The notes below the pieces were generated by a model that made no database searches, had not been told where the DNA came from, and saw only the letters and a list, made by a program, of their open reading frames with translations. From positions 30,380,001 through 30,444,000 of the forward strand of contig OZ231126.1 in the NCBI GenBank assembly GCA_965153355.1: a DNA stretch of 64,000 nt. The letters run 5' to 3'. The number at the start of each line of letters is the position of its first letter. Position 1 is the first letter of the stretch. This DNA is from Flaccisagitta enflata. Lineage: Eukaryota. The position numbers and the translations under genes are program-made. This document shows, in pieces, positions 4,230 through 59,588 of this stretch.

Positions 4230-5974
4230 CACAGTGGCAGTTGATCAAGCATTAATGATTTCGAGATTTCTTATTCATTGGGTAGGTGTATGCGTAACTT
4301 AGCTCTAGACATGATCTCAGACATGGCAGACGCATAGGTGAGATGGTATGCCACTAAAAAGCCAAAATTGACATTGCGCGTTACCGCCCCAAGGAGGCCT
4401 CCGTGTATCATATTAGGACGCCAAAATGTTTCAAATACCTTTGAATCATCATTGTACATGCTGTCGTGGTCGACCACGGGCACACGGCATGGCAGTGTCA
4501 ACTTTTCTGTTTTTGTCTTTAAGCGATTTCGTCGCGGTTCGTCGCAACAACACAATAAAACCAATATCATTTTTCGGTTGTCCAGAGGTTTAAGTTTCAT
4601 CATGGTGGTGGCAAACGGTGGCGATGCAGAAAAACGCGCGTATTTCACTTTAGAAAATTTACTTGGCTTCTAGATTTGCGAGAGGAGAATCTTATGGAGG
4701 CGGTAAAACCCGTATCCTATATCTCGATTGAATCAGTACTGAGATTTTGACGTCAGATTCACTATTGGGAGTACAGACTGACATGAACAATTAAGGATAT
4801 GATTTGACCGTTCAGTTGTTGAGCTCAAAATGTATGGATATTACCTTCAAAATTTATTCCTTATTCACCTAGTCTCTTTTGGAGTACACAGCAATGACAG
4901 ACCGACCGACCGATAGACCTTACAACGAGCATACCCGCTGCATGACGCATCAAAAAAAATGGAACAAACAAACGCGTAAAAGAAAGAAAAAAAAGGGTGA
5001 ACGTAATAAAGAAGAAAAGATCCAAAAAAAAAAAGAAAAAAGAAATGGGTGGAAAGGGTGAAATATGCTTCGTCGTTGCTCGATAACTACCACTGTGTAG
5101 CTGATTTGGGTGGTTTTAGGTGGTTGAGGTGGTCTGGGTGAAATATGCTTCGTCGTTGCTCGATAACTACCACTGTGTAGCTGATTTGGGTGGTTTTAGG
5201 TGGTTGAGGTGGTCTGGGTGAAATATGCTTCGTCGTTGCTCGATAACTACCACTGTGTAGCTGATTTGGGTGGTTTTAGGTGGTTGAGGTGGTCTGGGTG
5301 AAATATGCTTCGTCGTTGCTCGATAACTACCACTGTGTAGCTGATTTGGGTGGTTTTAGGTGGTTGAGGTTGTCTGGGTGAAATATGCTTCGTCGTTGCT
5401 CGATAACTACCACTGTGTAGCTGATTTGGGTGGTTTTAGGTGGTTGAGGTGGTCTGGGTGAAATATGCTTCGTCGTTGCTCGATAACTACCACTGTGTAG
5501 CTGATTTGGGTGGTTTTAGGTGGTTGAGGTGGTCTGGGTGAAATATGCTTCGTCGTTGCTCGATAACTACCACTGTGTAGCTGATTTGGGTGGTTTTAGG
5601 TGGTTGAGGTGGTCTGGGTGAAATATGCCTCGTTGCTCGATAACTACCACTGTGTAGCTGATTTGGGTGGTTTTAGGTGGTTGAGGTGGTCTGGGTGAAA
5701 TATGCTTCGTCGTTGCTCGATAACTACCACTGTGTAGCTGATTTGGGTGGTTTTAGGTGGTTGAGGTGGTCTGGGTGAAATATGCTTCGTCGTTGCTCGA
5801 TAACTACCACTGTGTAGCTGATTTGGGTGGTTTTAGGTGGTTGAGGTGGTCTGGGTGAAATATGCTTCGTCGTTGCTCGATAACTACCACTGTGTAGCTG
5901 ATTTGGGTGGTTTTAGGTGGTTGAGGTGGTCTGGGTGAAATATGCTTCGTCGTTGCTCGATAACTACCACTGTG
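4230..5974. mobile_element. Transib/RAG-like non-autonomous DNA transposon
   Basis: Left end CACAGTGGCAGTTGATCAAGCA; right end (reverse complement) CACAGTGGTAGTTATCGAGCA; 5-bp TSD CGACC at 4225-4229 and 5975-5979. No recognisable transposase. Confidence 0.75.
5056..5974. repeat. 80-bp tandem array, 12 copies of the transposon right terminus
   Basis: CACTGTG ends at 5097, 5177, 5257, 5337, 5417, 5497, 5577, 5654, 5734, 5814, 5894 and 5974. Units are near-identical; one is 77 bp. Confidence 0.95.
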
Positions 5975-6386
5975 CGACCGACGGACAAAGCGGGGTGTAG
6001 AGTCTCGTGCACGCGACTAGTAACAATCAGATTTCACCTGCCACGCTTATACCATGATGCATTTGTCCCAGCTTGGTTTTATATCATCCAAACATGTTGT
6101 CATGCCTTCTAAACTAAGCTTTGGTAAAGTACATAAGAAAATTGTTTTGAAATTTTTTCTGGTATAAAAATATCCTTTTAGGTATGAACACAGTTTTTGT
6201 CCGAGGTTAAAATATCTCAGCAAAGCGACCTCCAAGGGAGAGAAAGAGAGCAAAAGGAAGAAAGAAGAAACAAAACGCGTAAAACTGGAGAGAAATGGGT
6301 CATTAGGCTAAAGAACAATCTCCAGCTTCGCCACTGTTTTCTTTATCATACACATTTACAGCTATAGCTAGTGAAGGCTCAAGTTC

Positions 6387-7277
6387 CAAACAAAACAAAA
6401 CAAAACAAAACAAATAAAACAAAACAAAACAAAACAAAACAAAACAAAACAAAACAAAACAAAACAAAACAAAACCACCATTGCTAACATCACCACAGAT
6501 TCTCCTCCTCTTCATCCTCTTCATCCTCCTCCTCGTCTTTGTCTCTCCTGGAATACTTTCGCTTAATTTGATTTCATAGATGGCGTACGCCGTCATCGTC
6601 TTTTTTTCTGCTTTCCGTACATCCAGAGAGAGAGAGAGAGAGAGAGAGAGAGAGAGAGAGAGAGAGAGAGAGAGAGAGAGAGAGAGAGAGAGAGAGAGAG
6701 AGAGAGAGAGAGAGAGAGAGAGAGAGAGAGAGAGAGAGAGAGAGACTTATTCTTGCTCATTCTCGCTCACGTTCCATCATTTCCGCATTGTTTGACGAAT
6801 CGTTAATTGCTCTCTTTCTCCTATTCCCTTATATTGTTCCTTCCTTCTTTCTTTGTTTCTTTCTCTCTTTCTTTCTCTCTTTCTTTCTTTTCTTCTTTCT
6901 TTCTTTCTTTCTTTCTTTCTTTCTTTCTTTCTTGCTTTCTTTCTTTCTTTCTTTCTTTCTTTCTTGCTTTCTTGCTTTCTTTCTTTCTTTCTCTTTTCTT
7001 TCTCTTTCTTCTTGCTTTCTTGCTTTCTTTCTTTCTTTTTCTCTGCTTGCTTTCTTGCTTGCTTTCTTGCTTTTGTTTTTTTTCTTTGTTTTTTTGTTTT
7101 TTTTCCTTTTTTTCTTTGTTTCTTTGTTTGTTTGTTTGTTTGTATGTTTGTTTTTTTGTTTCTTTGTTTCTTTCTTTCTTTCTTTCTTTCTTTCTTTCTT
7201 TCTTTCTCTCTTTCTTTCTTTCTTTCTCTCTTTCTTTCTTTCTTTCTTTCTTTCTTTCTTTCTTTCTTTCTTTCTTT
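6387..7277. repeat. Microsatellite cluster: (AAAAC)n, (AG)n, (TTTC)n
   Basis: 6387-6475, 6625-6745 and 6840-7277. Confidence 0.9.
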
Positions 7278-57779: not shown

Positions 57780-58933
57780 AGTCGCGGAGACGCAACTCTA
57801 AAAGCTACTTTGTCCGTTTGTCGGTCCGTCGATCCATTAGTCCGTCGGTTAATGATGCGTGAGTTGATGAGTGAAAAAAAACCGACGTTTCCGTCCCTGT
57901 CCCTAGCCCTAGGATGGACAAAAGAATCATGGATGAAGTAAAACAAGGCCGGATCCACGGCTACTATAGTTGCGCACGGATGCAGGAGCCGTATTTGAGG
58001 TCACTAGAGCATTTAGGCAGGGGCAGTGAGATCAAAGAATAAAAAACATAAAAAAAAAAATGAAATGTGACGGATGGATGTATGGACAGATGGACAGACG
58101 GACAGACGGATGGACGAATGGACGGACAAAGATGGGCGTAGAGTCGCGTAGCACGAAAACTATCCAATAGATTTCATAGAATGGGTGATCCGGCAAAATG
58201 ATCAGAAGCCACCAAATTAAATGGCAGTCGGTTTAAATTGATAGGCGAAATAAAAGTGGTTGTAAAAGAGTTTGACTTGACGATGTTTCCAATTGATTAA
58301 TCATGATTTTTTTCTAAGTGAACGTTGTTTTTATTTTGCTACTTAGAAATAGCGGTTCTGTGAGATTTAGGGTATCAAAATGGGTCAAAATAGAAAAGAT
58401 ACATGAATGAAAATAGAAAAACAAGTGAATAAAAATGATTAAGATATGTTATACATGAAATTTGAAAGCAAAATGTGCATTACGCTTAGAAGCCATGGAC
58501 CAAAGTCAAAGCACCACACATCGCAGTATGCTAGAATGTGTATATGCGTGGCAGAGGCCCAGGGAAAAAATTTCATAAGCAACAGAGACCTCAAACCATC
58601 GGCAGCGAGCATATTTAAGATAAAAATTAAATTGAATACTAACTTGTTTACATTCAATTGACTCTTTTTGCATTTTTTTATCTTTTAATTATTCTTCACG
58701 TTTCAGCTAAGTATTTTTAGACGTGTGCTACTCGACTCTTTACCCTGCTTTGTCCGTCGGTTGGTCAGTTGGTAGGTTGGTCGGTCGGTTGGTTGTTTGG
58801 TGCCCTTATAACTTTTTCAGCATTATTTAGCATTTTGAGCTAACTGCTCCTGCCCAAATGCCCCAGTAACCTTATCTATCAATGCCCCTGCCCACCTGCA
58901 CGCAACTAGGGTAGCCGTGTGTCCGGCCTTGTT
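57780..58933. mobile_element. Cluster of HINEs (57780-57940 +, 57940-58160 -, 58715-58933 +)
   Basis: The latter two show AACAAGGCC/GGCCTTGTT ends; all have GACG/GTCG microsatellites and AGTCGCG-type hairpin ends. Confidence 0.6.
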
Positions 58934-59417
58934 ACGTCTTTAATTGCACCAACATAAGAGGCTCTGTCGGTGCATCCGTCTGTTTGACCTTTGGTTTGTT
59001 AAGCTCAAGTGAAAAAATCAATAAAATTGACCAAAATCACTTGAAATTTCTCATGCAGGAAATTCAAATCATTCTTCATCTCATCTCATTCATTCATTCA
59101 TTCATTCATTCATTCATTCATTCATTCATTCATTCATTCATTCATTTTTTCATTCTTCATTCATTTGACAACATTCATCATTCATTGCATTCATACATTC
59201 ATCATGCTGATTGATTCATAACATTCACACTTATTCATTATTAATTCATTATTCATAAATTCTCATTCATTGTTGATTGATTCATGCATTCATTCCATGT
59301 GTACTCCATCAATGCAGTTTTCCACTGACATGTGATACACTGTTTGATCAACATTTTCTCTCTCGAAAAACATAACTTACTTTCCCGATCCTCCTTCAAT
59401 CATTTTATTCCTCGTCC

Positions 59418-59588
59418 TTGTTTTGCGTGGTGGTTGGGTATATAAAGCCACTACTATGCCAAAACCACCCATAGTGTTGGTGATTTAGGCGTTTGGGTGG
59501 TTTTTGGGGAGTCTGTGATGGTGATTTGGGGGTTTTGGGTGGTGGTTGGCTATGTAATGTCTCTAGTATGCCAAAACCACCCATAGTG
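59418..59588. mobile_element. Orphan Transib-like terminus, duplicated (112-bp period)
   Basis: TATGCCAAAACCACCCATAGTG (reverse complement CACTATGGG...) ends at 59476 and 59588. No partner end found. Confidence 0.45.

Follow-up and report, generated by a model that had tools for sequence, protein, structure and literature searches.

Among eukaryotic DNA transposon superfamilies, a 5-bp target site duplication (TSD) has been described as unique to Transib, in which the terminal CAC is invariant, and both Transib and RAG were reported to prefer GC-rich targets (PMC1131882). RAG-like (RAGL) transposons, including non-autonomous ones, show the same 5-bp TSD and CAC termini, and pairs of terminal inverted repeats (TIRs) of non-autonomous RAGL elements are known from an oyster and from deuterostomes (PMC7204232). 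Moreover, TIRs were described as a prevalent source of satellite monomers (PMC9659126), and McGurk and Barbash are cited for the birth of satellites from transposon termini (PMC5932611). HINEs (Helentron-associated interspersed elements) are a separate repeat system. They are composed of a subterminal inverted repeat (subTIR) with an adjacent inverted repeat (IR), a microsatellite, central repeats and a right flank with a palindrome, and they insert in T-rich sites without target duplication (PMC4067079, PMC7492417). In the oyster Cg_HINE the microsatellites are of the GTCY/GTCK type and the central repeats are followed by a right flank of ~60 bp (PMC7492417).

In the present study we analyzed a stretch of 64,000 nucleotides (nt) from Flaccisagitta enflata (contig OZ231126.1, positions 30,380,001 to 30,444,000), called the window throughout, in which elements with Transib/RAG-like ends are nested in HINE-like repeats. 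An earlier note on this DNA had claimed that a unit starting with a CAC heptamer is tandemly amplified four times and had assigned all four cases to one Transib/RAG-like lineage. These cases are element 1 (4230-5974), element 2 (42349-44511), a 70-bp array (46272-49161) and a short repeat at 59420-59588, and they probably form a mixture rather than one system, with two real transposons, the second of them lacking an array, one array that is probably Transib-related and one partial duplication inside a HINE. The whole best explanation, to which we assign a probability of roughly 0.6, is that elements 1 and 2 are bona fide non-autonomous Transib/RAG-like cut-and-paste transposons in GC-rich HINE segments, that the right terminus of element 1 has been amplified into a tandem array, that the 70-bp array is most likely a second, unrelated instance, and that the two remaining repeats are a subterminal copy and a partial HINE duplication. 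It is built on nested insertions with their boundaries, duplications and inverted repeats, on flush arrays with intact heptamers and on the rarity of heptamer-bearing arrays, all of which can be read directly from the window.

Elements 1 and 2 and their ends

Element 1 interrupts a copy (c1) of HINE-A, one of two HINE-like families of the window. The features of this locus are:

4067..4229, plus strand: HINE-A copy c1 before the insertion, with head, body and (GACC)n, aligned with nine window copies
4225..4229, unstranded: left TSD copy CGACC of case 1, from flank comparison
4230..5974, plus strand: element 1, Transib/RAGL-like, non-coding, 1745 bp, with CACAGTG...CACTGTG ends
5056..5974, plus strand: tandem array of 80 bp x 11.5 (Tandem Repeats Finder, TRF; 99% matches)
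5975..5979, unstranded: right TSD copy CGACC of case 1, from flank comparison
5975..6022, plus strand: remainder of HINE-A c1, a tail with an 18-nt palindrome, aligned with the other copies

The heptamers of element 1, CACAGTG from 4230 and CACTGTG at 5968-5974, each lie flush against CGACC. In the TIR 20 of 22 alignment columns match, with one mismatch pair and one gap. The insertion point is the (GACC)n tract of copy c1, and excising the element together with one CGACC gives an in-phase junction of (GACC)n and tail, as it is found in copies c4 and c8. The three open reading frames (ORFs) of the element have no Pfam match. A Pfam search of all 67 window ORFs yielded no relevant family and one irrelevant match below threshold; since no window ORF has a meaningful match, all sequence discussed here is regarded as non-coding.

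The right 919 bp of element 1 consist of the array, and in this element the amplification of a terminal, heptamer-bearing unit is certain. Each 80-bp unit is composed of a 38-bp GGT-rich spacer and a 42-bp right terminus with CACTGTG, which includes the 21-nt TIR arm. All 12 strict heptamers are intact, and the array terminates exactly on the outermost CACTGTG, which abuts CGACC. Ahead of the first terminal module there is A-rich DNA instead of the spacer, and therefore the array has the structure terminus-(spacer-terminus)x11. Hence, the 11.5-fold amplification of right terminus and spacer leaves the element with 12 potential cleavage heptamers at its end. The near-identity of the units points to recent growth. 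The 12 copies of 80 bp proposed before agree with the TRF result (5056-5974, period 80, 11.5 copies). At 4890-4960 element 1 itself contains a HINE-like (GACC)n tract and a tail-like segment.

Element 2 lies in a copy of the second family, HINE-B:

42005..42348, plus strand: HINE-B before the insertion, with long-IR head, (GTCC)n, 39-bp central repeats and the start of the right flank
42344..42348, unstranded: left TSD copy GCATC of case 2, from comparison with the intact HINE-B
42349..44511, plus strand: element 2, non-coding, 2163 bp, with CACAGAC...CTCTGTG ends, from its flanks and inverted block
42420..42436, plus strand: subterminal direct repeat that copies 17 nt of the left terminus exactly, from sequence comparison
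44512..44560, plus strand: right TSD copy GCATC and continued HINE-B right flank (95.6% over 45 nt)
55243..55900, minus strand: intact HINE-B with 20-bp central repeats, used as empty-site proxy for case 2

For this element the left side alone had been given previously, and we located the right end at 44511 (...CTCTGTG). The flank up to 42348 matches the HINE-B right flank at 90% and its continuation resumes at 44512 at 95.6%, while the intact HINE-B is uninterrupted at 55225-55265 (minus strand) and holds a single GCATC. The 5-bp duplication of case 2 is thus the cleanest of the three and is unambiguous against this intact paralogous site. Both ends share a 17-nt inverted block (16/17 nt matching), whose distance to the heptamer is 12 nt at the left end and 2 nt at the right end. 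The offset of the block between the ends (42349-42384 and 44486-44511) amounts to 10 nt, or one helical turn, and this asymmetry is reminiscent of the 12/23 spacer difference in recombination signals. Within element 2 a HINE-like (GTCT/GTCC) tract is present at 43180-43215; as both elements contain HINE-like pieces, repeated mutual nesting is suggested. The two 71-bp units which the earlier note had reported for element 2 are not in tandem. The pair is identical in its first 17 nt, matches in 41 of 76 alignment columns overall and has no TRF row, and we rejected it as an array in favour of a mere 17-nt subterminal repeat.

We searched the window from end to end for CAC...GTG pairs that are separated by no more than 8 kb, have the same 5-mer outside both ends and reach at least 6/7 heptamer complementarity. 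Nine pairs were observed, and controls with displaced 5-mers gave 5, 5, 3 and 2. When the terminal 25 nt of both ends were compared, case 1 showed the highest match (15) and case 2 reached 12, with 8-10 for the seven others. The pair 39557/41855 (TATTT) was judged to be due to chance given its AT-rich duplication and an end match of 10/25. With gaps allowed, cases 1 and 2 both have a TIR score of 15, the best in the set. Strict CACNGTG occurs 47 times in the window, and among the 25 arrays with a period of at least 20 that TRF detected, only the 80-bp and the 70-bp array carry it in every unit. Both are flush with a heptamer that adjoins a 5-bp duplication. The recurrence is therefore real at n = 2 and not at four.

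Ordinary minisatellites, coincidental short direct repeats and possibly mis-assembled arrays could in principle produce a similar picture. The window (~41% GC) is very dense in micro- and minisatellites, with 152 TRF rows and the 25 arrays of longer period, and locally repetitive motifs surround two of the three duplications. However, the site of case 2 is proven against the intact paralogous copy, the inverted repeats of cases 1 and 2 extend well past the heptamer, and the two array-bearing inserts account for 45 of the 47 strict heptamers. We consider an explanation by chance and artefact to be very improbable.

Elements 1 and 2 resemble non-autonomous Transib elements (Transib-N; Kodama and Hopper of Drosophila) in their 5-bp TSD, their inverted CAC termini, which are similar to the heptamer of recombination signal sequences, and their GC-rich targets (PMC1131882). 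A further likeness is the size of ~1.4-2.2 kb with no ORF (PMC1131882; bioRxiv 10.64898/2026.08.26.747230). In contrast to Transib, the TIR module of element 1 is present 11.5 times. With RAGL elements and ProtoRAG both elements share the 5-bp TSD and the CAC termini, whereas they match the protostome RAGL TIR consensus CACTWMCAAACKTYKBB only in CAC (PMC7204232). Read inwards, element 1 has CACAGTG at both ends and element 2 has CACAGAC and CACAGAG. The 5-bp TSD is unambiguous in case 2 and consistent in case 1; in case 3 it comprises 5 nt, where 3-4 are possible. All three inserts have GC-rich targets.

Other types of transposons leave different marks. CACTA/CMC elements duplicate 2-4 bp and hAT elements 8 bp, long terminal repeat (LTR) elements of the integrase type have TG..CA ends, and Helitrons/Helentrons make no TSD. 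An identity of the inserts with any of these was set aside on TSD length or ends. The claim of a Transib/RAG-like lineage holds as far as elements with 5-bp TSD, CAC...GTG termini and GC-rich targets are concerned; a single lineage is not shown, since beyond CAC(A)G the three inserts have little in common at their termini.

Several observations weigh against the best explanation given above, and three more are given with the 70-bp array below. The TSD of case 1 lies within (GACC)n, where the phase shift is equally compatible with 1, 5 or 9 bp. The offset-15 control of the pair scan yielded 48 pairs, a number inflated by the arrays, and the TIR score of cases 1 and 2 was reached by 74 of 3000 random CAC-starting pairs, a null that is itself inflated by microsatellites. 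Unlike Transib, neither element has an A-rich nonamer at positions 31-39 of a ~38-bp TIR, that is at 23 nt from the heptamer. Neither a transposase nor RAG1L/RAG2L genes were detected by Pfam among the 67 ORFs of the window. Finally, a second genomic copy of the three inserts was not found in the sequence collections searched, which barely sample this organism. In the same collections the 80-bp unit terminus had no match in viral and prokaryote-genome contigs, and the 70-bp unit core had none in viral, metagenome and prokaryote-genome contigs.

With satellites derived from TIRs (double-insertion model, Tetris) the 80-bp array shares that its monomer includes the terminal inverted repeat, here as part of the 42-bp terminus, and that the array is contiguous with the element end. 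It differs in that the unit is composed of terminus and 38-bp spacer instead of a whole-element dimer, and in the superfamily, which is Transib/RAGL-like. It also differs from the arrays of HINEs, as it is part of an inserted TIR element and not of the HINE. Satellite birth from transposon ends is already known. For Transib/RAG-like elements we found no description of terminal tandem arrays in the literature, supplements excepted.

The 70-bp array and the repeat at 59420-59588

The third case interrupts HINE-A copy c5:

46222..46271, plus strand: 50-nt end of HINE-A c5, the right flank with 3' subTIR (canonical orientation), ending in GGCAG
46272..49161, plus strand: array of 70 bp x 41, starting with CACCGTG and ending at phase 68 of 70 (TRF and parse)
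49162..49285, plus strand: second GGCAG and the rest of HINE-A c5, from alignment

TRF places this array at 46289-49131 with a period of 70, 40.5 copies and 90% matches, and our parse gives 41 units, in line with the approximately 40 copies reported earlier. GGCAG stands immediately before the CACCGTG start and again right after the end, where a short (CCCATAA)n tract precedes the phase-68 end of the last unit. In six HINE-A copies that lack the array, the sequence runs through this point uninterrupted, from which it follows that 5 nt are duplicated here. The 5-bp duplications claimed for cases 1, 2 and 3 (CGACC, GCATC, GGCAG) are thus present at both flanks of all three inserts. As the probable origin of the 70-bp array we regard an integration of the Transib type. 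In such a scenario, a unit or array with the heptamer in front would have entered the HINE by a staggered 5-bp cut and then have grown or been homogenised at the site.

It might be argued that only elements 1 and 2 are Transib-like and that the 70-bp array is an ordinary HINE central block with an incidental CACCGTG and GGCAG. The array resembles repeat-carrying HINEs (Cg_HINE of Crassostrea gigas, DINE-1/DINE-TR1, pearl) in the layout of the host repeat and in occupying the central slot. It is located 9 nt from the HINE-A 3' subTIR and ~46-50 nt from the element end, comparable to the ~60-bp flank of Cg_HINE (PMC7492417), and this slot of HINE central repeats is the first of the three points announced above. 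Central arrays are also found in three other HINEs of the window (59795-60247, 55243-55900 and 42005-42348). Moreover, two modules of ~24 nt, one an (AACC)n-like tract and the other a CCACCCATAAC motif, occur in the 70-bp unit as well as in HINE-A, with scores of 27-31 compared to shuffle means of 15-16; these scores were reached by 0-1 of 300 shuffles, which destroy the microsatellite structure. The second point is the lack of an inverted partner end: the TIR score of 4 was equalled by 2786 of 3000 random pairs, and a heptamer is present at one end only. Third, GGCAG lies in a tandem GGGCAG motif, so that the site may already have held three GGGCAG copies, or the duplication may measure 3-4 bp if the inserted element has G or GG at its end. 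However, HINEs integrate without duplicating their target, whereas the array is accompanied by 5 extra flanking nt in comparison to the six array-less copies. The array also begins exactly on the heptamer, for which the chance by phase is ~1 in 70 per boundary, its target is GC-rich as in the other two insertions, and a strict CACNGTG in the units is restricted to two of 25 arrays. Both the flanking 5-nt duplication and the CACNGTG start distinguish it from a HINE block, and we consider the explanation as an ordinary central block unlikely.

The units of the 70-bp array show 90-100% identity to their own consensus. Among 37 parsed unit starts, CACCGTG was found 25 times, CACTGTG five times, CACCTTG four times, CACCATG twice and CATTGTG once. 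Most of these variants reflect CpG transitions (CACTGTG, CACCATG), and no column of the unit is less conserved than its second CpG. The CpG decay is consistent with cytosine methylation of the array and, together with the unit identities, suggests that this array is older. Special conservation of its heptamers was rejected, as conservation is 0.954 compared to 0.958 elsewhere, with unit ends biased by the local alignment. No clear gradient of divergence from edge to centre was visible across the array. A candidate nonamer like that of recombination signal sequences (RSS), AAGTAAACC at 23-nt spacing, matches in 6/9 positions and was discarded as not above chance, with a binomial estimate of ~0.1 per spacing in the A/C-rich unit.

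A different view of the same 2.9-kb block is that it is mobile itself, as a concatemer in which copies of a 68-nt element follow each other head to tail with 2 nt at each joint. A Transib/RAG-like transposase would then have integrated it into the HINE repeat slot with a 5-bp duplication, and rolling-circle Helentron machinery could spread it further; element 1 with its 12 alternative right-end heptamers would represent an earlier stage. We hold this view to be rather improbable. If it were true, satellite seeding and the emergence of central repeats in HINEs would both be linked to a transposase of the RAG type.

A further array, of 60 bp x 6.3, is located at 41607-41985, with an A/C-rich minus strand and no strict heptamer per unit. 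It stops ~20 nt ahead of the HINE-B head and has an 11-nt CATCAAAAT-type motif in common with the 70-bp unit.

The fourth case consists of one feature:

59420..59588, minus strand: 57-nt segment present twice (59420-59476 and 59532-59588), starting with CACTATG

The earlier note had described it as two copies of a 112-bp unit. The two 57-nt copies, 50/57 nt identical, are 112 bp apart, and overall 76 of 125 columns match, the remainder being unrelated. The CACTATG segment and its flank can be aligned collinearly to the HINE-A c5 subtype, covering its interior and tail (local score 43; shuffles 22.4 +/- 3.9, maximum 35 in 200). A partner end or duplication was not detected, with no match to the required flank+CA motif. 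On grounds of this collinearity and the missing partner, the segment was rejected as a transposon end, and it is best described as a partial duplication inside a HINE. With the subterminal repeat of element 2 and the HINE-subtype interior of case 4, two of the four proposed arrays thus fall away: a repeated amplification of terminal units is certain in one element (80 bp x 11.5) and probable in a second, and it does not extend to cases 2 and 4. The ACCACC-rich character ascribed to the system applies to the units of cases 1, 3 and 4 and to the left end of case 2, and not to the left end of case 1.

HINE-like hosts and target choice

HINE-A is ~215-250 bp long and is present in about ten copies in the window. 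In reverse orientation it consists of a T run, an 18-nt palindrome, (GGTC/GTCG)n, the body, an inverted arm copy and a small end palindrome. The 18-nt palindrome corresponds to the subTIR with the adjacent complementary IR. An 11-nt inverted copy of the palindrome arm is found in all six HINE-A copies that keep the opposite end, with 0-3 mismatches, and the palindrome near the other end is weak with its 4-bp stem. HINE-B (55243-55900 and 42005-42348) has inverted repeats of ~55 nt, (GTCC)n and central repeats of 20 bp or 39 bp. One complete repeat-carrying copy stands apart from the insertions:

59795..60247, plus strand: complete HINE with palindrome, (GTCY)n, 21-bp x 7.4 array and a right flank of the HINE-A type

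Within the window, this copy sets a precedent for an array that directly precedes the right flank of a HINE. It belongs to a cluster of HINE left flanks (palindrome and (GTCY)n) in 59650-60550, at 59650-59735, 59795-59865 and 60470-60550. Taken together, the families show subTIRs with a complementary IR, a microsatellite, central arrays (20, 21 and 39 bp) and a right-flank palindrome, and their copies are bounded by A/T runs. The label HINE is reasonable, because this layout agrees with the published DINE-1/HINE and Cg_HINE. Alignments to other HINE copies in the window confirm that cases 1-3 lie inside HINEs.

The HINE-tail pattern was also found in 18 metagenome contigs with a total of 32,238 nt, and in none of the viral contigs. 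Compared with the window, these contigs have only HINE pieces in common (90 BLAST rows, all HINE), and they contain no CAC..GTG pair with a 5-bp TSD, at a control mean of 0.25. In the contigs (L001-L018) the HINE tail, comprising microsatellite, 18-nt palindrome and A run, is joined to differing opposite ends. L007 and L018 have 12-nt tandem repeats beside the HINE microsatellite, and L003 has nested HINE tails in opposed orientation.

A target preference for HINEs had been proposed on the basis of the three insertions. The 30-nt target contexts have a GC content of 0.70, 0.63 and 0.57, compared to a window mean of 0.41, and only 5.7% of the 30-mers have a GC of at least 0.60. HINE-like DNA makes up 3641 of 57202 nt (6.4%) outside the inserts, so that three of three insertions in HINEs would have a probability of ~3e-4 without GC matching. 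However, HINE-like sequence accounts for 28% (968/3445) of positions with a 30-nt GC of at least 0.57, and after GC matching the probability is 0.02 for three of three, or 0.08 for the two insertions from the unbiased scan. A HINE-specific preference is not shown at n = 2-3, with insertions easiest to recognise inside repeats, and it is not distinguishable from a choice of GC-rich DNA. The elements may have inserted in HINEs because these are GC-rich islands in DNA of 41% GC and Transib/RAG prefer such targets.

The results on target choice also bear on the full model of the earlier note, in which one lineage with four amplified termini provides alternative cleavage ends, seeds satellites and targets HINEs. 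Two flush heptamer arrays of unrelated sequence do occur within 45 kb, all three duplication-flanked inserts lie in HINEs although these constitute 6.4% of the window, and element 2 contains a 17-nt copy of its terminus. However, cases 2 and 4 are not tandem arrays and case 4 is collinear with a HINE interior, the termini of the three inserts have only CAC(A)G in common, and GC matching raises the share of HINE-like sites to more than a quarter, with insertions being most visible in repeats. In addition, the heptamer positions of the 70-bp array are no better conserved than the rest and decay at CpG. The complete model therefore appears improbable.

Array growth, significance and further repeats

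The array of element 1 may have started with one duplication of the terminal module and expanded by unequal exchange thereafter. This first duplication could go back to replication slippage, to filler DNA in the repair of an excision gap, or to aberrant transposition involving the ends of sister chromatids, which reportedly has been found in work on maize Ac. The inner heptamers could act as alternative ends. The 70-bp array would most likely represent a second instance, unrelated to element 1.

V(D)J recombination signals derive in evolution from Transib/RAG-like ends. An element with 12 intact heptamers is a natural substrate for the choice of a RAG-type transposase among tandem ends, and it lets one ask whether such arrays help or poison transposition. 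If the reading of the 70-bp case is true, a satellite block has entered a new locus with a duplication of the transposase type, which connects Transib-like elements and Helentron HINEs as otherwise separate repeat systems. If it is not confirmed, the region is one of well-resolved nested transposons in a very repeat-rich genome.

A search of sequencing runs with 41500-51400 found parts of this region in 13 runs, two of which cover shares of 0.70 and 0.36; runs labelled marine metagenome cover shares of 0.06-0.31. Besides the arrays discussed, the window contains a 20-bp minisatellite with 108 copies and no heptamer at 31431-33591, whose unit recurs 1 kb upstream in a smaller block (30321-30474). 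At 44703-44786, ~150 nt past the HINE-B right flank, a degenerate interstitial (TTAGGG)n-like tract of ~14 units was observed. On the minus strand, 19075-21552 comprises an 825-codon open frame of low complexity, rich in Ser, Pro, Asn and His, which includes a long stretch of poly-Asn and has no match in Pfam. This frame could be a repeat artefact or else an exon that encodes part of a disordered protein.

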